This document shows, in pieces, positions 10,809-56,811 of a stretch of 64,000 nucleotides of DNA (the stretch's first letter is position 1; every line of letters begins with the position of its first letter). The notes under the pieces are model-generated. The model was not told the DNA's origin. It did no database searches and saw only the letters and a list, made by a program, of their open reading frames with translations. A program made the translations under genes and the position numbers. The DNA comes from Negativicutes bacterium. Lineage in GTDB: Bacteria; Bacillota; Negativicutes; UBA1444. The DNA lies in assembly GCA_963665275.2 (NCBI GenBank), contig CAXXIN010000018.1:18300-82299 (forward strand), written 5' to 3'.

Positions 10809-10883
10809 TTGTTGATTGCAACAGATTGGGACAGTTTATGGATTGACAAGTTTGATACAGGTTGTTATTATAAGAGAAAATAT

Positions 10884-10982
10884 CCTTTAAACTGGTCCCG
10901 TGAGGCTGGTAAGGGGCGGCTTGAGTTCTATAGTTGGTTTGCGCCTTTTCTGCGTGCCTCACACGCGGGAAAGGCGTTTTTT
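10884..10982 (+). promoter_or_regulatory. PyrR-type transcription attenuator upstream of pyrK
   Basis: The hairpin CCTTTAAACTGGTCCCGTGAGGCTGGTAAGGGG resembles the PyrR binding loop (GUCCaGAGAGGCU). GTGAGGC (10900-10906) can alternatively pair with GCCTCAC (10956-10962). That second site lies inside a 15-bp terminator stem (10942-10976) followed by T6. Confidence 0.55.
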
Positions 10983-11029: not shown

Positions 11030-11800
11030 ATGGTAAAGATCATTGAACAGGCGGCGGTTGTCGAAAATACCTTGCTCGCACCCGGCGTATTCCGATTGGT
11101 GGTGAAGGCGCCAAAAATTGCAGAGCAGTGCGCTCCTGGACAATTCGTGATGCTGAGGGTGACCCCTCTCGCAGATCCTTTGCTCAGGCGGCCCATCAGT
11201 ATCGCAGGCGCCGATGCGCAGGAAGGAACTCTCACGTTGATTTGCCGGATCGTCGGGCACGGCACCGACCTCCTGTCTACGGTCAAAGTGGGTGAAATGC
11301 TGGATATCATGGGGCCCTTGGGACGGGGGTTCGACCTGAACTGCAAGCGACCACTGCTGGTAGGCGGAGGCATCGGCCTGGCGCCTTTGCTGTACGTGGC
11401 TGAGGCCTGTTGCCCCAATCCAGTTGAAGTATTGGCAGGCGGGCGCACTGACAGTGAGTTGTTTTGGACGAAGCTTTTTCAGGAGAGTTGTCAGGCGGTC
11501 CATGTGACAACTGATGATGGAAGTTTGGGAGTTTGCGGCACCTGTGTCGATGCGTTGCCGGAAGTGTTGAAGGCGGGCAACTTTGACAGGGTTATGACCT
11601 GCGGGCCGCGCCCCATGATGCAGAGGGTGGCTGCGGAGGCAGCAAAATTCGGCATTCAGACGCAGGTTTCCCTCGAAGAACACATGGCTTGCGGGTTGGG
11701 CGCCTGTCTTTCCTGCACCTGCGCCGCATCAGACGGCGGAGCACGTCAGGTGTGCAAAGATGGTCCCGTTTTCTGGTCGGAGGAGGTGGCGTGGGCATGA
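11030..11800 (+). CDS. pyrK: dihydroorotate dehydrogenase B electron-transfer subunit
   Basis: Flavoprotein reductase fold plus the C-terminal 2Fe-2S motif CGLGACLSCTC...VCKDGPVF. An ATGA overlap joins it to pyrD. Confidence 0.9.
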   Translation: MVKIIEQAAVVENTLLAPGVFRLVVKAPKIAEQCAPGQFVMLRVTPLADPLLRRPISIAGADAQEGTLTLICRIVGHGTDLLSTVKVGEMLDIMGPLGRGFDLNCKRPLLVGGGIGLAPLLYVAEACCPNPVEVLAGGRTDSELFWTKLFQESCQAVHVTTDDGSLGVCGTCVDALPEVLKAGNFDRVMTCGPRPMMQRVAAEAAKFGIQTQVSLEEHMACGLGACLSCTCAASDGGARQVCKDGPVFWSEEVAWA

Positions 11801-12714
11801 GTGATGCGTTAGGAATCAATCTGGCTGGCATCAAAATGCGGACGCCGCTGCTGTCCGCTTCAGGAACTTTTGGTTTTGGCGAAGATTTTGCGGACTTCCT
11901 TGATTTTGAACAAGTCGGCGCCTTTGTGGTAAAGGGGTTGACGCGAGAACCTCGCCGCGGAAATGCAGGTCGGCGTATCGCTGAAACTCCGGCCGGAATG
12001 TTGAATTGCATCGGACTGCAGAACCCTGGAATTGAGAAGTTCCTGCAGGAAATTTTACCCCGGATCAAGCAATATGATGTTCCGGTCATTGCGAATATCA
12101 ATGGTAATGTGGTTGAGGACTACGCTTATCTGGCGGAAGCTCTAGACCAAAGCGGTGTTGCCGGTATCGAAGTGAATATCTCCTGCCCCAATACCAAGCA
12201 CGGCTGCATGGCTTTCGGCGTTGTGCCGGAAACCGCAGCGGCCGTGACTGAGGCGGTTAAAGCCAAAACCAGTCTACCTGTGATCGTTAAACTCTCGCCC
12301 AATGTCACGGATATTACTGTGATTGCCAAAGCAGTAGAAGCGGCAGGCGCCGATGCGGTTTCCCTCATCAATACACTCGTCGGCATGGCAATTGATACCA
12401 AAACCTGGCGTCCGGTGCTGGGGAACGTGGTGGGCGGATTATCCGGTCCGGCTGTAAAACCGGTTGCTCTGCGCATGGTGTGGCAAACAGCGCAGGCGGT
12501 CCAAATTCCCGTTATCGGCATGGGCGGCATTGCCAGCGCGCTGGATGCCGTAGAGTTTTTCCTCGCAGGAGCCCAGGCGGTGGCAATTGGAACGACTAAT
12601 TTTGTCAATCCGAGCGCGATGAACGACATCGCAACAGACTTGGCAGCCTATCTGGAGTCCAGGGGACTGAACCATGTTAGCCAACTCATCGGTCAAATCA
12701 GGAAGGAAGGGTGA
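11797..12714 (+). CDS. pyrD: dihydroorotate dehydrogenase B catalytic subunit
   Basis: Translation MSDALGINLAGIKMRTPLLSASGTFGFG with NISCPNTKHG. The start ATG at 11797 overlaps the pyrK stop; the ORF-track start at 11689 is too long. Confidence 0.9.
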   Translation: MSDALGINLAGIKMRTPLLSASGTFGFGEDFADFLDFEQVGAFVVKGLTREPRRGNAGRRIAETPAGMLNCIGLQNPGIEKFLQEILPRIKQYDVPVIANINGNVVEDYAYLAEALDQSGVAGIEVNISCPNTKHGCMAFGVVPETAAAVTEAVKAKTSLPVIVKLSPNVTDITVIAKAVEAAGADAVSLINTLVGMAIDTKTWRPVLGNVVGGLSGPAVKPVALRMVWQTAQAVQIPVIGMGGIASALDAVEFFLAGAQAVAIGTTNFVNPSAMNDIATDLAAYLESRGLNHVSQLIGQIRKEG

Positions 12715-12720
12715 TATCTC

Positions 12721-13434
12721 ATGAACAATGCGGAACGATTGATTGTAGCACTGGACATGCCCACAACGGAACAGGTGATGAAAGCGGTCGACACATTGGG
12801 GGATGCCGTCAGCTATTACAAAATCGGCATGGAGTCGTTCTATGGAATGGGGCATACAGTGCTGGCCCAAATGGCTAGCCGCAACAAACGGATTTTTCTC
12901 GATCTGAAACTGCACGACATCCCTAATACAGTAGCGCGCAGTGTCAAAGCCCTGTGTCAGTTTTCACCGGCTATGACGACTCTGCATGCCGCCGGTGGGC
13001 CGGCGATGTTGAAAGCGGCCGTTGAAGCAGCGAATGAGTGGTCTGCGCAGGCCAACCGCCCCCGTCCCAAACTGGTCGCGATCACGGTGCTTACCAGTCT
13101 GGGTGAACAGGATTGGGCCTCTATGGGGCATCAGAAAAATATCCGGGAGTCTGTGTTGCGATTGTCGATGATGTGTCGTGAGGCCGGAATCGACGGCGTT
13201 GTGGCTTCGCCGCAGGAGGCCGCATCCATTAGGGCTTTATGTGGCAGCGATTTTCTCATTGTGACACCGGGCATCCGACCACTGAACCAAGAGCATGGTG
13301 ATCAGACCCGCACCGCGACGCCGGCTGAGGCGCTGAAGGCTGGATCTGATTATTTGGTTGTGGGTCGTCCGATTCTGGCCGCCGCCAATCCCAAGGCCGC
13401 CGTCCAGGCGATATTGCAAGAGATGGGAAGTTGA
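12721..13434 (+). CDS. pyrF: orotidine-5'-phosphate decarboxylase
   Basis: Motifs LIVALDMP and FLDLKLHDIPNT; 237 aa. Confidence 0.9.
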   Translation: MNNAERLIVALDMPTTEQVMKAVDTLGDAVSYYKIGMESFYGMGHTVLAQMASRNKRIFLDLKLHDIPNTVARSVKALCQFSPAMTTLHAAGGPAMLKAAVEAANEWSAQANRPRPKLVAITVLTSLGEQDWASMGHQKNIRESVLRLSMMCREAGIDGVVASPQEAASIRALCGSDFLIVTPGIRPLNQEHGDQTRTATPAEALKAGSDYLVVGRPILAAANPKAAVQAILQEMGS

Positions 13435-32650: not shown

Positions 32651-32701
32651 TTGCAATGAGTACAGTTGAAGGTTGTTATCAATAGTGAATGGATGTGTAG
32701 A

Positions 32702-32751
32702 ATTTGCAAAAAGAACCCGCGCCGTTAAAGGTGCGGGTTCTTTTTGCAAAT
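32702..32751. terminator. long hairpin terminator
   Basis: 19-bp stem ATTTGCAAAAAGAACCCGC/GCGGGTTCTTTTTGCAAAT. Confidence 0.7.
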
Positions 32752-32836
32752 TCGAGTGAATGAATATACTTGAATTAAAAACCGGTATGCCTTTGAGCGA
32801 AATATTAATGTAAATGAGAAATAGTTTCAAAATACA

Positions 32837-39263: not shown

Positions 39264-41162
39264 TTGTCATCAACCATTGTCCACCCCGCACCGGAAAGTT
39301 TGTGGGGTAAGTTATCCCGGCTGCTGTTGGGCAGGGCCCTGCGGAATGATCAACTGGCGGAAGAGAAATTCACCACATTCTGGGGATTGCCTATCCTGTC
39401 CAGTGACCCGATTTCTTCGGTCGCTTACGCCAGCGAAGAAATTTTGTATGTGTTGATTCCTGTAATCGGACTTTTGGCATACACGCAGATGTTCCATATC
39501 GCATTGGCAATCGTTGCGCTATTGTTCATACTCGTATTTTCTTACCGACAGACCATTGATGCGTATCCGTGCGGCGGCGGTTCCTATATAGTGGCCCATG
39601 ACAATCTCGGCGAGATCCCAGGGCTTACCGCTGCGGCAACCTTATCCATCGACTATATTCTGACCGTTGCCGTCAGTGTGGCTGCCGGAACTGCAGCCAT
39701 TACTTCCGCCATTCCCGAATTGCTTGTCCATCGTGTGCCTATTGCGCTGTTCTTCATATTGATCCTGACTATGGGCAATCTGCGGGGAATCAAGGACTCA
39801 TCCCGCATGTTCGGCTTACCGACGTATGCGTTCATTGTTTCCATGCTGATCATGATCGTTTATGGGATTTACAAGGTTCATGTCGGCGGGTTCATTCCGC
39901 AAGCAGTGCCACAGATGCCGGTTGTGGCGGGTGAGATTACGCTTTTCCTAATTTTACGGGCCTTTGCTGCCGGTTGTACCGCGCTGACAGGTGTGGAAGC
40001 GGTTAGCAATGCGATTCCCAATTTCAAACAACCGTGCCAGGCTAAAGCGAAAAGTGTACTGGCTTGGTTATCATTGATCGTTCTGATAATTTTTGGCGGT
40101 ACTTCATATCTGGCGACACTCTACCATGCGTTGCCCAATCCAGACTCCACTGTGGTTGCACAGATTGCCGGGCAAGTCTTCGGCGACAGTCCCATGTACT
40201 ACATCGTTCAGTTCACGACGGCCCTCATCCTGGTCATGGCTGCCAACACGGCTTATACCGACTTTCCCCTGCTGATGTCGCTACTGGCGAAAGACAGCTA
40301 TGTGCCGCGCCAGTTCGCACATCGCGGCGGCCGGCTGAATTTTTCCAACGGCATTGATTTTCTCGGATTAGCCGCTGCGGTTCTGGTCATTGTTTTTGAC
40401 GGGGAAACCCACCTTTTGCTGCCTTTGTATGCTGTGGGAGTGTTTGCCTCTTTCACATTATCCCAGTCCGGCATGTGGTGGCGATGGGTGAAAAACAAAA
40501 CCCCGGGATGGAAACATAAGGCTGCGATCAACGGTTTCGGCGCCGTGGTCACCTTTGTTACGGTACTGATTATCGGCGCAACGAAATTTATGTCAGGTGC
40601 CTGGATCGTATGTCTGCTGGTACCCATATTCATTTATGGCATGCTGAAGGTGAAATCTCATTATGCCATGGTTGCCGAACAACTCAGCCTGCCTCTCAGC
40701 GAAAAGGCTGCCGAGCTCGCCGGCAACGAGAAGCAAGAAAAACACATTATTATTCCCTTGGCCTCCCTCAATCGGGCCTCGTTCAAAGCATTGTGGTATG
40801 CCAAGCGGCTGGCGGGTTATAGTAGCATTCGCGCGTTCCATGTGGCCGTGGACGAGGAAGCAGCCGTAAAATTGCGTCAAAAATGGACGGATTTCAATCT
40901 GGAGATCCCGCTGATTATCAGAGTGTCACCTTATCGGGACACGATCGCGCCGCTACTTGACTATGTTCGCGATGAAGAGCGGACATTTGGGCAAGGCGAC
41001 TTGATTGCCGTTGTAATTCCGCAATTTGTCGTGCAGAAATGGTGGCATAACTTGCTGCACAACCAGACCAGTTATTTCATACGCAGCCGATTGATGAAGG
41101 ATCCCCGGATTGCGATCGTCACCGTGCCGTACCCCTTACGCGAGAATAAATCAACCCAATAA
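39264..41162 (+). CDS. kimA: KimA-family K+/H+ symporter (APC superfamily with cytoplasmic C-terminal domain)
   Basis: By recollection, collinear similarity to B. subtilis KimA. Shared segments include LSSDPISSVAYASEEIL, SYRQTIDAYPCGGGSYIV, IDYILTVAVSVAAGT, ALTGVEAVSNAIPNFK, PLYAVGVF and the C-terminal PQFVVQKWWHNLLHNQ. Confidence 0.75.
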   Translation: MSSTIVHPAPESLWGKLSRLLLGRALRNDQLAEEKFTTFWGLPILSSDPISSVAYASEEILYVLIPVIGLLAYTQMFHIALAIVALLFILVFSYRQTIDAYPCGGGSYIVAHDNLGEIPGLTAAATLSIDYILTVAVSVAAGTAAITSAIPELLVHRVPIALFFILILTMGNLRGIKDSSRMFGLPTYAFIVSMLIMIVYGIYKVHVGGFIPQAVPQMPVVAGEITLFLILRAFAAGCTALTGVEAVSNAIPNFKQPCQAKAKSVLAWLSLIVLIIFGGTSYLATLYHALPNPDSTVVAQIAGQVFGDSPMYYIVQFTTALILVMAANTAYTDFPLLMSLLAKDSYVPRQFAHRGGRLNFSNGIDFLGLAAAVLVIVFDGETHLLLPLYAVGVFASFTLSQSGMWWRWVKNKTPGWKHKAAINGFGAVVTFVTVLIIGATKFMSGAWIVCLLVPIFIYGMLKVKSHYAMVAEQLSLPLSEKAAELAGNEKQEKHIIIPLASLNRASFKALWYAKRLAGYSSIRAFHVAVDEEAAVKLRQKWTDFNLEIPLIIRVSPYRDTIAPLLDYVRDEERTFGQGDLIAVVIPQFVVQKWWHNLLHNQTSYFIRSRLMKDPRIAIVTVPYPLRENKSTQ

Positions 41163-49461: not shown

Positions 49462-49738
49462 ATGATATCTTGACCCTTTTAGCCTAAGTCTTGTCAGCTT
49501 TTTTACGTTTACTGGAGATACAATTGGCGGTGGGTATGCTTCTAGTGGATTTGTGAACGCCGGGATGTAGGCGCATTGAACTTTGGCATCGCATACAACT
49601 TTACTCCAGCAGCCGCTATGCTTGGATATCTACAATAATAAAAACTTCAAGAATACTATCACTGTCCAACTAGATATCAATTTTTGATCCTGCGATCAGT
49701 GAGTTGTATGAGAATAAATAGTGGGAGGCATCTGCAGT

Positions 49739-51568
49739 ATGTGGCGGAAGAGCAGCCTGCGGCAGAAGATATTGATTGGGTATTTCATCCTCGTGGCGGT
49801 CATTGCCACTGTTGGAGCATGGTCGATTTACAACGTTCAACAACTTAACAAAGTGCTTACCGATATCACCAAAGAAAACTATATCAGTGTGCTGGCCGCC
49901 GAAAATATGATTGGAGCCTTGGAGAGACAGGACAGCGGAGCACTCTTTTTGCTGCTGGGTGAAAAGCAACAGGGATTGGAGATTTATCAGGCTGGCCGCG
50001 AGGAGTTTCAATACTGGTTTGACCAGGAGGAACGAAATATCACCTTGCCCAATGAAGGAGAACTTGTCGTCCGTATCAAGGATAACTACAGTAAATACAG
50101 TCAATTGCTCGATGCCCTTACTCGCCTGAATGCATCCGGCGATGGCGGGGGCGTGCGCAGGATGTATCTGGTCGAGATCTATCCGTTGTTCAATACCATT
50201 CGGGCTGATCTGCAGAATGTACTGGCAATAAATCATCAGGAATTTATTGCTGGAAATGCACGGTCAGGCGACACTGCCAGGCAGGCGGCGGTATCGGTGG
50301 CTGCGGTCGGCGGCAGTGCGGTGATTTTTGGGATTATCTTCGCACTTGCCCTTTCAACGGCCGTTGTTCAGCCTGTTATTCGCTTGACGGAGACGATTAA
50401 ACGCATTCGGGAAGGCAACCTGAGCGAGACGGTGGCAGTATCCGCTTTGGACGAAATGGGCAACCTTGCCTCGGAATTTAACAGCATGCTCCAGCGTTTA
50501 CGCGCTTATGAGAACGTTATCTATGGAAAGCTGGCGGTTGAGCAGCAAAAGGCTCTGGCTATTATTCAGGCCATGGCGGATGGGATTGTACTACTTGGGC
50601 AAAATCAGCAGGTCGTGATGCTGAACCCGGCGGCGGAGCAAATTCTCGGAATAAAATCCGCTGATGCGGCAGGGAAATATGCAGGGCAGGTTTTTCTCCA
50701 ACCCGATATAGTCCGTTGGTTGGAGCAGACGGGTAATTCCGATCAAATGCTTGTTGAGAGAGCCGTGGCGATTAAGGCTGGAAGGCAGGAACATTTCTAT
50801 GAAATAGAGGTTACACCCTTTAAGACGTGGGAAGAGACTGGAAATGTAATAATTCTTAAGGATGTTACCAACTTCAAGCTGCTGGACAAGAAAAAAGCGG
50901 AGTTTTTGTCCGGCATTGCACATGAGATTCGAACCCCGCTCACATCTATCACCATGGGGCTTGGAATTTTAAACGAGAGCAGTATATTGAAAGAAAATCG
51001 AAGTGCAATCGAAATATTGGCCGTAATACAGGAAGAAACAGCCAGACTGACGACGTTGATGGATGAATTCCTCGAATTATCACGATTTGAGTCAGGCGGT
51101 GCCGAACTAAAAACTCAGCAGTTGGAAGTTGCAGCTCTATTGGAACGAACCATCGCAGCGTTTCGAATGCAAGCGGAAAAAGTGCATATTCGGCTTGAAC
51201 TAAGTATGTCGGAACCGATCCCCCCCGTAGTATGGGATGCAGGCAAAATTCAGTCGGTTATTTCCAATTTGATTACCAATGCGTTGCGCTATACCCCGAC
51301 TGGGGGAAGGATAGTCGTTACGGCAGGAAATGCGGCGGATGCCGTTTTGATTTCGGTTACCGATACAGGGCCCGGGATACCGGGGAAGCTGCAAAAAAAA
51401 ATATTCGATAAATTTTTTCAAATGGACGCAAGGCCTACCGGCAAAGTGGGTCTTGGGCTGGCAATTTGCAAGGCGATTGTCAAGAAGCACGGCGGGAAGA
51501 TCTGGGTGGAGAGCAGGGAAGGTCAAGGAGCGACGTTTTTCGTTGAACTGCCTATTCAAGCAACCTGA
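49739..51568 (+). CDS. sensor histidine kinase (helical periplasmic sensor, HAMP, PAS, HisKA, HATPase)
   Basis: H-box IAHEIRTPLTSI, with N/G boxes NLITNALRYT, DTGPGIP and GLGLAICK. ATG at 49739 follows GGGAGG. Confidence 0.85.
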   Translation: MWRKSSLRQKILIGYFILVAVIATVGAWSIYNVQQLNKVLTDITKENYISVLAAENMIGALERQDSGALFLLLGEKQQGLEIYQAGREEFQYWFDQEERNITLPNEGELVVRIKDNYSKYSQLLDALTRLNASGDGGGVRRMYLVEIYPLFNTIRADLQNVLAINHQEFIAGNARSGDTARQAAVSVAAVGGSAVIFGIIFALALSTAVVQPVIRLTETIKRIREGNLSETVAVSALDEMGNLASEFNSMLQRLRAYENVIYGKLAVEQQKALAIIQAMADGIVLLGQNQQVVMLNPAAEQILGIKSADAAGKYAGQVFLQPDIVRWLEQTGNSDQMLVERAVAIKAGRQEHFYEIEVTPFKTWEETGNVIILKDVTNFKLLDKKKAEFLSGIAHEIRTPLTSITMGLGILNESSILKENRSAIEILAVIQEETARLTTLMDEFLELSRFESGGAELKTQQLEVAALLERTIAAFRMQAEKVHIRLELSMSEPIPPVVWDAGKIQSVISNLITNALRYTPTGGRIVVTAGNAADAVLISVTDTGPGIPGKLQKKIFDKFFQMDARPTGKVGLGLAICKAIVKKHGGKIWVESREGQGATFFVELPIQAT

Positions 51569-51591
51569 AGCAATAATTGGGGGTGTGGAAA

Positions 51592-52299
51592 ATGAACCAT
51601 AATAACAAAATTTTAGTAGTCGACGATGAAAAAAACATCCAGTTTGTAATCACCAAATGCTTGGAAGAAGCGAAGTATTCAGTTGTAAACGCGTCTGACG
51701 GGGAGAGCGCATTGGAAGCCATAGGCACGGAATCTTTTGCGCTCGTTATACTCGATATCAAGCTTCCCGATATGGATGGGCTGCAGGTGCTGCAAAAAAT
51801 AAGAGAACTGCTTCCTGAGCAGAGGGTCATGATGATTACGGCGCATGGAACCATCGAAACAGCGGTGGAAGCCATGAAGCGCGGAGCGGTTGATTATCTG
51901 CAGAAACCATCTACACCGGAGGACCTCCGGGCCACAGTCGGCCATAATATAAGCAAGTTAGTGACAGTTCAGATGGAACCGAACGAAACCTTTGACAGCT
52001 ATATTTCCCAGGGAAGACGCCTCTTGGAGCAAAAGCAACTTGATAAAGCAATGTTGGTTATTCGTAAGGCACTCCAACTTGAATCCGAACGTCCGGAACC
52101 CTTCAATTTGCTCGGCGTCTTGGGTGAGTTACGCGGTGATTTTAAGGCCGCTAGCAGAATGTACCGTGTGGCTTTGGCGCTCGATAGCGCTTACAAACCG
52201 GCAATTTTAAATTTACAGCGAATTAGCCAATGGAAACATGACTCGGAGCATATTAATTTTGGCGATGTTCCTGAAGAAAAAGTTCCTTTCCCGTTGTAG
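51592..52299 (+). CDS. response regulator, receiver domain + TPR-like C-terminal domain (no DNA-binding domain seen)
   Basis: REC ILVVDDEKNI...VILDIKLPDMDG...AVDYLQKP. The C-terminal helical repeats LDKAMLVIRKALQLESERPEPFNLLGVLGELRGDFKAASRMYRVALALD are TPR-like. Confidence 0.8.
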   Translation: MNHNNKILVVDDEKNIQFVITKCLEEAKYSVVNASDGESALEAIGTESFALVILDIKLPDMDGLQVLQKIRELLPEQRVMMITAHGTIETAVEAMKRGAVDYLQKPSTPEDLRATVGHNISKLVTVQMEPNETFDSYISQGRRLLEQKQLDKAMLVIRKALQLESERPEPFNLLGVLGELRGDFKAASRMYRVALALDSAYKPAILNLQRISQWKHDSEHINFGDVPEEKVPFPL

Positions 52300-52302
52300 T
52301 GT

Positions 52303-52440
52303 GGGGCTTGAAAACAGGCATGGAGGGCGGATATGTGCCCTGAGGGGATTAATAGGGAAGTCCGGTGTAATGCCGGCGTGGGCCCGCCATTGTATAGAGG
52401 CCGGCTACTCAAATAGTGGGTAGTCGACCTCTCGATTTTA
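52303..52440 (+). promoter_or_regulatory. cobalamin (B12) riboswitch-like element with no downstream + strand gene
   Basis: The core AATAGGGAAGTCCGGTGTAATGCCGGCGTGGGCCCGCCATTGT (52351-52393) matches the conserved AAnAGGGAA..GGTG..AA..CC..G.CCCGCCACTGT core. AGTGGGTAGTC resembles the CCACTG..GGGAAG element. A hairpin AGAGG...CCTCT (52396-52432) is followed by CGATTTT. A canonical B12 box is not evident. Confidence 0.55.
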
Positions 52441-52448
52441 ATGATTGA

Positions 52449-54029
52449 TTACAGGTAAATTTTCGCTCCGGGACCGAGTGGCCAATTGAACAGCATGAAG
52501 GTAACCAGCCAACCGCCCCAGGTAATAGCGAACCAGAATGCAAACGGGAGTTGGGCGGCAATGATCGTTCCATAGCCAATCTTCTTTTCATCAGATTTGA
52601 CATAGTGGTTGATAATGCCGAGCATAACCGGGATATAGTAATTGAGAGGGCTGATGGGGTTGGTGATGCTTTCCCCTACTCGATACGCAGCCTGCACGAG
52701 GGCGGGTTCATATCCGAGCAGACCAAACATGGGGACGAAAATCGGGGCGAAGAAAACCCATTTGGCCGAACCGCTGATCAAAAGGAAGTCGGCCAGACCA
52801 GACAACATCATAAAACCGATGACCAAAGGGATGCCGGTGAAATGGATAGATTGCAGGAAGTGAGCGCCCTGAACGGCGATAACGGTTGCCAGGTTGCTTT
52901 TGGTGAACCAGGCAATAAATTGGGAGGCGGCCATGGCGAGGACGATGAAGCTGACTGAACCGCTAACGCCATTGGCCATCAGTTTGGGAATATCCGCTTC
53001 ACTCTTTATGACGCCTTTGCCAATGCCAAACGCCATTCCGACGGCAACAAAGAAGATGAAAATCAGTGGAATAATTCCGGATAACAGCGGGGACTTGGGA
53101 ACCAACTCATGAGTTTTTGGATCGCGGAGCCAGCCAAATTCCGGCACCGTCATTGCGAGAAGAAGAAGTATATAAATGACAGTTGTCCACCCTGCGTACT
53201 TCAGTCCTCGTTTTTCTTCCGGGGTCAACTCATGTGATTGCGTTACGGCATCCAGCTGCATATAAGGCATAAATTTGTCGAGACGCGGCGCCACCACTTT
53301 TTCGGCGACGATGGTGCCGACAACGGTCAGAATAATAACTGAGGAAGACATGAAATAATAATTGATCAGAACGTGCACCGGAGAATGCATGGTTTGAGGT
53401 AATATCTGGGTGGCGGTGGCTGTGATACCGGCTATGAGAGCATCCGTTCCTGCCGGAAGAAAATTGGCGCTGAATCCAGCTTGTGTTCCGGCGAAGGCAA
53501 CAGACATGCCAACCAGAGGGTTTCGTCCCATGCCGGCGAAGACGGCTGCGGCGACAGCCGGCATAAATACGGTGGCTGCATCGGAAGCCAGATTACCGTT
53601 GATGCCAAGACACATAATGGCCGCAGTGACTCCCCAGGACGGAACATTCAGCAAAACTCGGCGTACCAAGGCGGTAACCAAGCCGGTGCTTTCGGCAATT
53701 CCCATGGCCATCATCATGACCACTACCAGGCCAAGCGGAGGAAAGGCCACGAAATTCTTCACCATGTCCGCCAAAAATGACTGGAAGGAAGGGACGTTGA
53801 TCAAGTTAAGGACCTTGACAGTGATCATTTTGTTGCCTGCACCCATGTAGGTGGCTGAGGCCCCTTCGAAAACGAATGATAGCGCGAGAACTGCTGCGGC
53901 GAGAGCGATAAACAGGGTAAATGGGGATGGGAATTTGTTTCCGACATACTCTAAAATGTCAAGAAAACGCTGCAGGGCACTTGAAGTTCCATCACCTGCG
54001 ACCGGGACACTGGATTTTGGACTGGTCAA
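52449..54029 (-). CDS. AbgT-family transporter (p-aminobenzoyl-glutamate transporter family)
   Basis: 526 aa, polytopic, with typical AbgT N-terminus LQRFLDILEYVGNKFPSPFTLF. The TTG start lies 7 nt after AAGGAGG and directly abuts the upstream stop. Confidence 0.88.
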   Translation of the reverse strand: MTSPKSSVPVAGDGTSSALQRFLDILEYVGNKFPSPFTLFIALAAAVLALSFVFEGASATYMGAGNKMITVKVLNLINVPSFQSFLADMVKNFVAFPPLGLVVVMMMAMGIAESTGLVTALVRRVLLNVPSWGVTAAIMCLGINGNLASDAATVFMPAVAAAVFAGMGRNPLVGMSVAFAGTQAGFSANFLPAGTDALIAGITATATQILPQTMHSPVHVLINYYFMSSSVIILTVVGTIVAEKVVAPRLDKFMPYMQLDAVTQSHELTPEEKRGLKYAGWTTVIYILLLLAMTVPEFGWLRDPKTHELVPKSPLLSGIIPLIFIFFVAVGMAFGIGKGVIKSEADIPKLMANGVSGSVSFIVLAMAASQFIAWFTKSNLATVIAVQGAHFLQSIHFTGIPLVIGFMMLSGLADFLLISGSAKWVFFAPIFVPMFGLLGYEPALVQAAYRVGESITNPISPLNYYIPVMLGIINHYVKSDEKKIGYGTIIAAQLPFAFWFAITWGGWLVTFMLFNWPLGPGAKIYL

Positions 54030-55241
54030 TTAAATTCCTCCTTCATTCTTGGTTTTTCTTTCCAGGAATGTTAACGCCGCAAGGGCGGTTTCCTCCATTA
54101 CCTGAGCTCCGATAAACAGCGCACGCTCATCAAAGTCGAAGCCGCCGCTGTGGAGTGGGCGAACCGGGAGACCGGGAGTTCCACAGCCAACGAAAAAATA
54201 TGCGGATGGAACTTTTTCTGCGAAAAAGGCGAAGTCTTCGGCGCCCAAAACGGGTTTGTGATCCGAATGAACGTGCTCGGCGCCGAGAAATCGACTGGCA
54301 GTCAATACGACGAAGCTTGTTTCATCCGGCGCATTCTGCAGGCTGGGATAGCCGAATTGGTAGTCCAGCTCATAGTGACCGCCATACCCATCACAAATGC
54401 CCTGGATCATTCGCTTCATCCTCTCGGGAATATCTTTGCGGACGAATTCATTCAATGTACGGACTGTGCCTTCAAGTGTGACTTCTTTGGCAACCACGTT
54501 ATAACGCTCACCACCATGGATTGTGCCGATATTAATGGTCGCAGTTTCTCGAGGGTCAGTTTGTCGATGAATGATGCGGCTCAATGCTGTCAAAACATCG
54601 GAAGTCATCATGATGGAATCGATTCCCTGATGCGGAGCTCCAGCATGCGCACCAGCTCCGAACAACTTGAGCTGGAAACGGTCTGAAGATGCCATCATCG
54701 TGCCCTTGCAAACCCCGATATCACCATAAGGTAAGTCCGGCCACAGATGCATTCCGAACATCATGTCGACTTTTGGGTTTTCCAGAATTCCATCGGCGAT
54801 CATCAAGGGAGAACCGCCTTTGGGCGCTGCTTCTTCTGAGGGTTGGAACACCAGTTTGACGGTACCGCGCCAGGAGTTGCGATTTTCTTTCAGAGCGGTC
54901 GCTGCACCCAGCAACATCGAAGTATGGCCATCGTGTCCGCAGGCGTGCATGATGCCTGTATTGCGCGAGCAATAGGGAACCTGGTTGATTTCCATGATCG
55001 GTAAGGCGTCCATGTCAGCTCGCAAGCCGATGACTCCCCCGGGGCCCTTTCCTTCAATCGTTGCCAATACACCGGCGTGGCTGTCAAAGGTTCGCGTCGG
55101 GATATCCAGCGCGTGAAGTTGCTGGAGTATGAACTCCCGGGTTTTAAATTCGGCGCCGCTCAGTTCGGGGTTCGCATGCAAAGCTCTGCGCCATTCAATC
55201 ATCTGCCCGAGTTCTTTGGGTAAAATTGTTGCCGCCGTCAT
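54030..55241 (-). CDS. M20-family amidohydrolase (AbgB/hippurate-hydrolase-like)
   Basis: IEWRRALHANPELSGAEFKT and MHACGHDGHTSMLLG motifs. ATG at 55241 follows GGAGGAG; the ORF-track start at 55376 is too long. Confidence 0.85.
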   Translation of the reverse strand: MTAATILPKELGQMIEWRRALHANPELSGAEFKTREFILQQLHALDIPTRTFDSHAGVLATIEGKGPGGVIGLRADMDALPIMEINQVPYCSRNTGIMHACGHDGHTSMLLGAATALKENRNSWRGTVKLVFQPSEEAAPKGGSPLMIADGILENPKVDMMFGMHLWPDLPYGDIGVCKGTMMASSDRFQLKLFGAGAHAGAPHQGIDSIMMTSDVLTALSRIIHRQTDPRETATINIGTIHGGERYNVVAKEVTLEGTVRTLNEFVRKDIPERMKRMIQGICDGYGGHYELDYQFGYPSLQNAPDETSFVVLTASRFLGAEHVHSDHKPVLGAEDFAFFAEKVPSAYFFVGCGTPGLPVRPLHSGGFDFDERALFIGAQVMEETALAALTFLERKTKNEGGI

Positions 55242-55488
55242 CGGGTGTCTCCTCCACTTCTTATATACAGTTTGTCCCAAAACCGGTTGTTGTTTTGTGT
55301 CTGTAATGCTATGATTTACTTGAAAAAATACTATCACACATAACGGACAAATAAAAGACATTTCCGTATAATTCATGAATATGCACAGAACCAGGGATAA
55401 TTATAAATTGTCGGTGATGGATGCCGCTTTTGTCATGATTCTGGGGTGTTGAAAAAATGCTATATTTGAAAAACGAGCAGGTGAAAAA

Positions 55489-56811
55489 ATGCGAAAAATT
55501 AAAATTGGCGTTGTAGGACCGGGAGATTCTGTGGCATTAATTGAAGAGGTTGCTACTGAATACAATGATAAAATGAGCGTGAAAGGGTATATATATGAAG
55601 ACGCTTCGGAGGTGCCGTATATAATTGAACGGTTCGATCCGGACGTTGATATGTGGATGTTTTCCGGCAAGGTTCCGTATCGATATGCTATGGCGGTGAA
55701 AAGCAGCATAAAGCCCAAAATGTTTATGCCCCATACGGGAACCAGCATATATCGTGTGCTGTTATACCTAGCCAGAGAGAGGATTCCTGTCGGAAGTATG
55801 AGTTTTGATACATTCAGTCGGCAGGAGATTATTGAAACCTTTGAAGATGCTGAAACGTTTCTGCCTAAAATTTATGTTAATGACTATGACGGAGTTGTTT
55901 CTGCCAGTGAGCTCACTAAGTTTCACCTGGATTTATGGAATTCTGGCAAGACCAAGGTTGCTGTGACGTGTTTTTTTGCAACATACCAGGAGCTAATAAA
56001 GCAAGGGGTTACTGCTTTTCGGATTTGGCCGACCAAAAGCAATATCCGGTCGATGCTTGATTTGGCTTTAAGCCGGGCGGATGCACTGAACTCCAAAGCG
56101 GGCCAGATTGCGATTCTACATGTTGCAATAGATGGATATGACGATTTCAGTCGTGAGGCTGTTTCAGGTTACGCTGTTCTGAAGGTTGAACTGCAATTGC
56201 ATGAAGTTTTGCTGGGGTTCGCGGAACGAGTCAAAGGTGCGATTGTCATGCAAGGAAACGGACGCTTCACGCTCTACTCGACTCGCGGCGCCATGGCAGA
56301 GATTACCGATGGATTCAATCATATGCCTATCATGGAAGAAATCGGCAGACGCTTGTCGATCAGCGTTAGCGGTGGGATTGGATTTGGTGATACTGCATAC
56401 AATGCCAATGAAAATGCGATGATCGCGCTCGGATTGGCGCGACGCAAAGGCAAACGCAAATGGATGGTAGTGCTGGATGATAAGAGTGTTATTGGACCGC
56501 TGGATTCTGAACTGCAGATAAAATACTCTATTCGGAGCCAAACTGCCGATATGCTGGCACTGGCGAAACAATTGAATGTCAGCGGGACAACTTTGAATCG
56601 TCTGCTTTCGGTTTATGCCAAAATTGACGGTGAAATCCTGGGGGCTGAAACCCTGGCCAGTTACCTTTCCATGACAGAACGCAATGCCAGACGTTTACTC
56701 GCTAGGTTGGCTGAACATGGAATGGCAGTGGAAGCCGGGGAAGAAAGCCATGGCGCTGGGCGGCCCCGAAAAATGTTCCGTATCGATGTGCAAAAAATTT
56801 TGCAGCAATAG
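55489..56811 (+). CDS. putative transcriptional regulator: N-terminal alpha/beta domain, degenerate GGDEF-like domain, C-terminal HTH
   Basis: The central segment IAILHVAIDGYDDFSREAVSGY...VMQGNGRFTLY...VSGGIGFGDTAYNANENAMIALGLARRKG has the GGDEF fold pattern, with GGDEF replaced by GNGRF. The C-terminus LSMTERNARRLLARLAEHGM is HTH-like. The gene is divergent from the M20/AbgT operon. Confidence 0.5.
   Translation: MRKIKIGVVGPGDSVALIEEVATEYNDKMSVKGYIYEDASEVPYIIERFDPDVDMWMFSGKVPYRYAMAVKSSIKPKMFMPHTGTSIYRVLLYLARERIPVGSMSFDTFSRQEIIETFEDAETFLPKIYVNDYDGVVSASELTKFHLDLWNSGKTKVAVTCFFATYQELIKQGVTAFRIWPTKSNIRSMLDLALSRADALNSKAGQIAILHVAIDGYDDFSREAVSGYAVLKVELQLHEVLLGFAERVKGAIVMQGNGRFTLYSTRGAMAEITDGFNHMPIMEEIGRRLSISVSGGIGFGDTAYNANENAMIALGLARRKGKRKWMVVLDDKSVIGPLDSELQIKYSIRSQTADMLALAKQLNVSGTTLNRLLSVYAKIDGEILGAETLASYLSMTERNARRLLARLAEHGMAVEAGEESHGAGRPRKMFRIDVQKILQQ

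Follow-up and report, generated by a model that had tools for sequence, protein, structure and literature searches.

The window examined here is a stretch of 64,000 nucleotides (nt) from a Negativicutes bacterium (contig CAXXIN010000018.1), and the element in question lies in the short spacer between two convergent operons, where an initial annotation made from the sequence alone had placed a cobalamin-riboswitch-like core with no gene to regulate. On its left side, the spacer is bounded by the stop codon of a response regulator (RR) gene (TAG at positions 52297-52299, + strand); on its right side, by the stop codon (52449-52451) of a gene for an AbgT-family transporter on the - strand (52449-54029; PF03806, 484.9 bits), next to which lies an M20 peptidase gene of the same strand (54030-55376). 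For the + strand genes upstream of the spacer, Pfam analysis yielded, in this order, KdpD, KdpE, a HAMP-PAS histidine kinase (HK), and an RR composed of REC and TPR domains (51577/51592-52299). The HK-RR operon (+) and the M20-AbgT operon (-) thereby converge on the spacer. No credible + strand open reading frame (ORF) follows the element: a 135-residue ORF at 52551-52958 runs antisense to abgT and has no Pfam match, and the next + strand gene starts at 55489. The initial annotation had described the neighbors in the same way and had likewise seen no + strand gene after the element; all of the features that it had named (RR stop codon, core, AGTGGGTAGTC, hairpin, CGATTTT, and minus-strand stop codon) were found at their positions. 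As argued below, the element is probably a truncated riboswitch rather than a functional one.

A default Rfam scan of the whole window reported no match. With permissive filters, the cobalamin riboswitch family RF00174 matched positions 52311-52450 (+) with 25.8 bits over model positions 1-189 (E value of 9.2e-5 in a 401-nt search and of 0.015 window-wide), and the 5' part alone (52316-52395) scored 28.1 bits (E value of 9.3e-6, model positions 1-86 of 189), this match being flagged as 3'-truncated. With regard to the variant models of compact aptamers (RF01689 and RF01482), a second, lower-scoring match from the same Rfam clan exists. Both RF00174 scores lie below the gathering score of 31.5 bits; the control riboswitches of btuB and Sporomusa scored 87 and 106.3 bits, respectively. 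The window-wide E value of 0.015 is comparable to those of spurious matches in the list, namely, a plant microRNA and a Thr_leader match on a terminator. The same list contains a PyrR binding site (RF00515) at 10880-10982 (+), which scored 47.3 bits, below its gathering score of 54; located directly upstream of a pyrK-like gene (11030-11800), pyrD (11689-12714), and pyrF (12721-13434), it is almost certainly a real pyrimidine attenuator overlooked by the default Rfam threshold. Since spurious and genuine matches occur together in one subthreshold list, context has to decide at this score level.

The conserved 5' core is intact at 52349-52388, with UAA-AGGGAA (J3/4), P4 including the GGUG..AA..CC T-loop, and P5/L5 CCCGC; for the invariant core motif, the expected number per window is 0.0017, and btuB carries the identical 11-mer UUAAUAGGGAA. 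A perfect riboswitch core alone does not make a riboswitch, however. A scan of viral contigs for the bare core yielded mostly false positives, which were rejected, within one phage protein-coding gene family: here, GGGAA-N4-GGTG-N-AA-NN-CC...CCCGC occurs inside the coding sequence (TACCAGGG...GGGAAGACTGGTGGAACGCCGGCGAAACCCGCAACGT; IMG/VR contigs, loci L101, L103, L104, L106, L107, L111, L112, L114, and L116). Because it arises by chance in this family, the bare motif is no proof of a riboswitch, and this recurrence, together with a window-wide E value in the range of spurious matches, would speak for a chance resemblance without any evolutionary tie to cobalamin riboswitches. What argues against such a coincidence is a BLAST search of annotated plasmids (7.3 Gb), in which positions 52329-52394 proved to be 80.3% identical over 66 nt (E value of 4e-7) to a riboswitch on plasmid pSPTER of Sporomusa termitida. 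This genuine Negativicutes switch (NZ_CP036260.1, ~39529-39711) is a class-I RF00174 member scoring 106.3 bits and is located upstream of an operon encoding OmpH and a TonB-dependent receptor. The two sequences agree at 53 of 66 positions, ungapped and in the same register, and the local score of the 5' part against Sporomusa (80) lies 22 standard deviations above that of shuffled sequences (17.8 ± 2.8). Moreover, the match covers not only the universal core but also lineage-variable parts: the P1 5' strand (GGAUAUGU versus GGAUAGGU), the P2 arm, which is common to both, UUAAUAGGGAAG, the P4 stem, which is identical (CCGG/CCGG), L5 (CCCGCC), and the start of P6. The organisms themselves belong to the same class, as the closest labeled relative of the window RR is a Negativicutes metagenome-assembled genome. 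On the strength of the Sporomusa homology, a chance origin is judged to be extremely improbable and effectively refuted; the cobalamin resemblance seen in the initial annotation is real homology.

Comparison of the spacer with its closest counterparts indicates a mosaic of three pieces, i.e., an RR flank (52297-52322), a riboswitch 5' fragment (~52323-52395), and an unrelated hairpin with its tail (52396-52448). The first piece consists of the RR stop codon and its 3' flank and is identical at 22 of 26 positions to the corresponding sequence of the outgroup locus L010, a score that was reached by 0 of 300 shuffles. It includes a small hairpin directly 3' of the stop codon, GCUUG-AAAA-CAGGC (52306-52319; L010 3087-3100), which carries two stem changes in L010, both of which retain pairing (U.G to U-A and G-C to G.U). 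No U tract follows this small hairpin, and it is absent from locus L001. The division into three pieces follows from the fact that the homology with L010 ends at ~52322, exactly where the riboswitch-derived block starts. The element as a whole begins 12 to 20 nt after the RR stop codon, with no terminator in between. The riboswitch-derived block corresponds to model positions ~1-86 of the class-I family RF00174; it contains the 43-nt core AATAGGGAAGTCCGGTGTAATGCCGGCGTGGGCCCGCCATTGT (52351-52393). Specifically, homology assigns to it the P1 5' strand (52329-36), a short P2 arm (52336-48) followed by UUAAU, the P3 5' strand AGG (52354-56) followed by GAA of J3/4, P4/L4 as GUCCGG-UGUAAUG-CCGGC (52360-77), P5/L5 as GG-GCCCG-CC (52380-88), and AUUGUAU as the start of P6 (52389-95), all on the + strand. 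The third piece opens with the strong hairpin AGAGG...CCTCT (52396-52432, +), which has a C.A mismatch between 5 bp and a further 10 bp capped by an AAUAG loop (-21.2 kcal/mol), includes AGTGGGTAGTC at 52415-52425, and is present in both the minimum free energy and the centroid folds. Its tail, CGAUUUUAAUGAUUGA (52433-52448), contains CGATTTT (52433-52439), in which a U4 tract begins 3 nt past the hairpin, and leaves 9 nt between this tract and the abgT stop codon. Overall, the region folds somewhat better than shuffled sequences (z = -2.1).

The homology with Sporomusa breaks off at ~52394/52395, precisely where the unrelated strong hairpin begins. When positions 52396-52450 were compared with the Sporomusa P6 extension, B12 box, P1 3' strand, and platform, the score was 12 against a null value of 16.7, and all shuffles scored at least as high; neither did the 52396-52432 hairpin resemble any of the fetched loci. 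Consistently, the 3' part adds no net score to the covariance-model alignment (25.8 bits for the full length versus 28.1 bits for the 5' part alone), in which 79 model positions are skipped and replaced by 31 unrelated nt. In the btuB control alignment (87 bits), the skipped positions carry the conserved blocks gCCACUG, CGGGAAGG, and gAGCC, none of which occurs in the window. The P6 extension pattern GCCACUG...GGGAAGG is absent from the whole window, and no match to the B12 box AGTCAGGAGAACTGCC within three mismatches occurs anywhere in it, in agreement with the initial annotation, which had seen no canonical box. The element thus lacks the consensus AGYCMGGAGACCKGCC, a trait of all cobalamin classes; its best candidate, AGUCGACCUCUC, matches 6 of 8 positions of the 3' half and 1 of 3 of GCC and has a C at the first J6/3 position. 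Whereas the P1 5' strand is identical to its Sporomusa counterpart at 7 of 8 positions, no partner strand resembling GCCUUAUCC lies downstream of it in the window element. In the pSPTER switch, GCCACUG and GGGAAGG mark the P6 extension, GAGUCAGGAGAACUGCC forms the B12 box, and both the P1 3' strand and a terminator are present, with genes of the B12-uptake type downstream; in the window, none of these parts follows position 52395. The missing 3' half was also sought elsewhere in the window and not found. Finally, the element does not occupy the 5'-leader position ahead of a B12-related gene but follows the RR stop codon and faces the 3' end of abgT.

The resemblance between the 3' segment and the closing strands of an aptamer is weak. 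For the 3' half of the B12 box, for P3', and for P1', the covariance model uses AGUCGACCUCUCGAUUUUAAUG (52422-52443, +), a stretch shared in part with the hairpin's 3' strand; this segment matches AGGAGACC at 6 of 8 positions, and its CCU (52428-30) could pair with AGG (52354-56), yet CCU is also part of the closing strand of the -21.2 kcal/mol hairpin. P1 is obtained in the full-length alignment only by a 5-nt shift of the 5' strand together with a 4-nt insertion, and 9 of its 12 pairs form, including 3 G.U pairs. A test of the fit of the 3' segment to the layout of B12-box half, P3', and P1', conducted with a fair null, gave P values of 0.024 for a sliding register and 0.30 for the register set by homology; the power of this test is low, as the genuine Sporomusa switch itself reached only 0.012. 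An earlier version (P of ~0.002) was discarded as biased because the covariance model had picked the 5' strand to suit the real 3' sequence. Taken together, these comparisons suggest that the resemblance is probably fortuitous. An argument from folding energy, according to which forcing P3, P4, and P5 costs 11 kcal/mol, was dropped because the validated btuB switch shows the same gap (10.3 kcal/mol). Both the L5-L13 kissing loop and the expression platform are traits of cobalamin riboswitches (PMC7367189, PMC11260477). Downstream of the element, neither an L13 partner nor a platform was found, and the distance from the P1 3' strand (52443) to the abgT stop codon (52449) leaves no room for them. 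The sole downstream loop containing CGGG (52469-75) was rejected as an L13 candidate, since it consists of Pro-Gly codons of abgT and is present in relatives without the element. The proposal in the initial annotation that a complete aptamer might reach into the 3' end of abgT rests solely on this codon-fixed loop.

Consensus scans for promoters and terminators gave counts equal to those of shuffled sequences. No sigma-70-like promoter was found by this means in the region 51500-53000, and the hairpin at 52396-52432 with its tail was not called as a terminator, as CGAUUUU with its four U residues fell short of at least five T in eight. Canonical terminators in the same genome (32706-32745) and in relatives look much stronger. 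Nevertheless, this hairpin is the sole candidate for a terminator or 3'-end structure in the spacer, and such a role between the convergent operons is its most likely one. The terminator at 32706-32745 lies within the Rfam Thr_leader matches on both strands (32676-32781); the family assignment was rejected as false, the site being a canonical bidirectional intrinsic terminator (aaaaagaacccgcgcc...ggtgcgggttcttttt).

Relatives of the two neighboring genes were used to trace the history of the spacer. Orthologues of the RR with 91% (L001-L003 and L117), 87% (L010-L011), 77% (L004-L008), 76% (L009), and 71% (L019) identity were compared; the sequence 3' of the RR gene differs widely among them, and the element is absent. 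Four of these loci (L001, L002, L003, and L117) share the RR/AbgT synteny of the window at a fourfold-site divergence of 0.17 to 0.21. The spacer of L001 measures 400 nt, cannot be aligned with that of the window, ends in a strong + strand terminator, and gave no cobalamin match even at an E value of ≤10; by eye it might pass for a decayed copy of the element, but none of the scoring schemes gave a significant similarity. As an orthologous spacer drifting at this rate would still be ~80% identical, the window spacer appears to have been replaced in a discrete event that took place after the lineages of the window and L001 had split. L010 has only the first 26 nt in common with the window, after which a promoter region and a gene for a rubrerythrin-like protein follow. 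Next to AbgT orthologues with 95, 93, and 75% identity, other convergent genes were found, with ordinary bidirectional terminators in between. The element is thus not conserved, either at loci of the same synteny or at other RR and AbgT orthologues. Look-ups of the exact RR and AbgT proteins of the window returned no record, and accordingly no second copy of the strain was found. No other copy was detected in GTDB representative genomes, viral contigs, or the fetched loci; BLAST of the spacer against all of the fetched loci gave nothing beyond chance, and pattern searches for the compact architecture gave nothing in viral contigs or in GTDB genomes, where the window's own genome was not recovered either.

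The explanation that we favor, and which we consider probable, is that the spacer holds the truncated, orphaned 5' portion (~45%) of a Sporomusaceae-type class-I cobalamin riboswitch, left over from a rearrangement. The surviving parts would be the P1 5' strand, P2, the P3 5' strand, P4, P5, and the first bases of P6. At a breakpoint at ~52395, the rearrangement would have placed this fragment next to an unrelated, GC-rich hairpin, which together with its short U tract borders on the abgT stop codon, and it would have removed the 3' half of the riboswitch, the platform, and the downstream genes, by analogy probably a B12-uptake operon. With the P6 extension, the B12 box, and the strands closing P3 and P1 missing, the fragment should be unable to form the cobalamin-binding four-way junction, and it has neither an expression platform nor a target gene. 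As no promoter-like site precedes it, it would be transcribed, if at all, as the 3' untranslated region (UTR) of the HK-RR operon. Direct observations are the homology, the point where it breaks off, the lack of several aptamer parts, and the failure to find the element in relatives; that it binds no cobalamin and that the hairpin acts as a terminator are inferences. Among the readings put forward in the initial annotation, that of a decayed relic is therefore favored, refined to truncation instead of slow decay, since the homology stops at ~52394 and the 5' part outscores the whole.

Several observations weigh against a mere remnant. In the surviving part, none of the invariant core nucleotides has been changed, which fits selection as well as a recent event; the latter is compatible with the small distance to L001. 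The 3' segment with its GACCU pairs with AGG and the shifted 5' strand better than most random sequences (the P value of 0.024 given above), the element fills the spacer almost exactly, and it is oriented toward abgT as AspocR is toward pocR. The U tract of the hairpin is weak for a terminator. Aptamers with a short P6 do exist, i.e., Cbl-II and the yvrC hybrid of Bacillus subtilis, so that absence of the P6 extension is not disqualifying on its own (PMC7367189). Only one sequence of this type is available. If the proposed reading is correct, the element carries little biological weight, being a truncated copy of a very well-known riboswitch family in a rearrangement-prone spacer. It would mark the RR/AbgT junction as a site of recent recombination, and it illustrates how a close full-length homologue exposes a truncation that the covariance-model alignment hides.

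A functional alternative, which we regard as unlikely, places an ON-type switch, built on a compact B12 aptamer, behind the last gene of the two-component operon. As long as B12 is absent, the hairpin at 52396-52432 and its U4 tract would terminate transcription; with B12, P3 (AGG 52354-56/CCU 52428-30) and a P1 sequestering the U tract would form, the base of the hairpin would open, and read-through would produce an RNA antisense to abgT-M20. Such a switch would be in line with the full-length alignment threaded by the covariance model (model positions 1-189), with the fact that the P3 3' strand consists of the closing-strand nucleotides of the hairpin, which renders the two folds mutually exclusive, with an energetic cost of the aptamer fold (~11 kcal/mol) no larger than that of btuB, and with the fit of the 3' segment at a P value of 0.024. 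Compact cobalamin aptamers are known from Cbl-IIa/IIb and from the yvrC hybrid of B. subtilis, which combines a P2 arm with a short P6 (PMC7367189); if the threading is accepted, the window element would resemble them in that it has a P2 arm and that a short hairpin replaces the P6 extension. However, in these aptamers the P3-P6 junction is closed, L6 docks with L4, L5 and L13 form a kissing loop, and a gene follows the expression platform. In the window, by contrast, closure is weak and not in register, the hairpin has 15 bp versus a 5-bp P4, and L13 and platform are missing. Since the nearest relative is a class-I switch, truncation accounts more simply for the missing middle than a compact aptamer does. 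Further points against the ON-type switch are that the 3' part leaves the score unimproved and is not homologous to the closest full-length relative, that a P1 strand otherwise conserved with Sporomusa has to be shifted by 5 nt, that the B12 box is noncanonical, including a C for the first A of J6/3, that no L13 partner other than the codon-constrained CGGG and no promoter were found, and that the element is absent from relatives of the same synteny at ~20% neutral divergence. To our knowledge, the known cobalamin switches, including AspocR and Rli55, are all of the OFF type, which likewise disfavors an ON-type device.

The geometry of this alternative matches that of AspocR of Listeria monocytogenes, an antisense RNA to pocR under the control of a B12 riboswitch (Mellin 2013, reviewed in PMC8079631): in both cases, the cobalamin-type element is located past the 3' end of a gene and is directed antisense into that gene. 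For AspocR, the aptamer is complete, transcription starts at a site of its own, and a terminator induced by B12 gives rise to forms of 230 and 1,400 nt; the window element, in contrast, has a truncated aptamer, its only hairpin falls within the would-be aptamer, no promoter was found, and the arrangement is not conserved. Thus, of the B12-gated antisense RNA proposed in the initial annotation, the geometry holds, whereas the complete aptamer, the B12 box, a ligand-dependent terminator arrangement, the promoter, and conservation do not. The specific version in which a compact aptamer in the two-component 3' UTR shares its P3- and P1-closing strands with the terminator and B12 causes read-through and antisense silencing of M20-AbgT, a putative system for salvage of the folate catabolite p-aminobenzoyl-glutamate, appears quite unlikely. 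Were it true, an ON-type, antisense-acting B12 switch would link B12 status to folate salvage, and this would be the second B12-controlled antisense system and the first ON-type one. Independently of B12, the sequence could have been exapted as a structured 3' UTR, in which P2, P4, P5, and the terminal hairpin were kept because they stabilize the HK-RR mRNA at its 3' end, define that end, or block convergent transcription from abgT. The start of the element 12 to 20 nt past the RR stop codon without an intervening terminator, the z value of -2.1, and the lack of a canonical bidirectional terminator such as relatives have in their spacers would suit this role, but a z value of about -2 is modest, no conservation points to selection, and close relatives have unrelated spacers; we therefore consider it improbable. 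The suggestion of a 3'-UTR element made in the initial annotation is thus borne out as to position and in no other sense.

Rli55 and EutX are riboswitch-containing small RNAs (sRNAs) that sequester the ANTAR regulator EutV. By analogy, the initial annotation had also considered a stand-alone riboswitch sRNA titrating the adjacent REC-TPR RR. The similarity consists in a cobalamin-type element that has no ORF to regulate and is located beside a two-component system, here one whose RR has no DNA-binding domain, and this location is all that speaks for titration. Whereas EutX and Rli55 use ANTAR-binding hairpins on an ANTAR regulator, the window RR contains only PF00072 and TPR and no ANTAR domain, there are no dual hairpins of the ANTAR type, no promoter was found, the aptamer is incomplete, and the RR orthologues lack the element. 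We consider titration highly implausible.

Some further observations concern the neighboring genes and the spacers of relatives. The two-component system (49721-52299) consists of a kinase with 4HB_MCP-HAMP-PAS-HisKA architecture and the REC+TPR RR without a DNA-binding domain. A protein search retrieved 1,480 sequences at E values of ≤1e-20, of which the named ones are mostly from Bacillota; their source labels often read "sigma-54-dependent regulator" or "OmpR family," domains that the window RR does not have. A second profile search of contigs with the RR alignment matched generic receiver domains with ≤43% identity and was uninformative. The L001-type spacer (L001 6709-7108, also in L002, L003, and L117) is nearly identical in four independent samples, folds with a z value of -2.2, ends in ctggcgg...ccgccag followed by T10, and has no Rfam match; it could be an unannotated + strand sRNA gene or an insertion remnant. 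Finally, the M20-AbgT pair (93 to 98% amino acid identity in the close relatives L012, L013, L014, and L001) was found with at least four different convergent neighbors, namely, the RR, an HD-domain protein, a FeoB-like protein, and one other, which suggests that this pair or its flank rearranges often.

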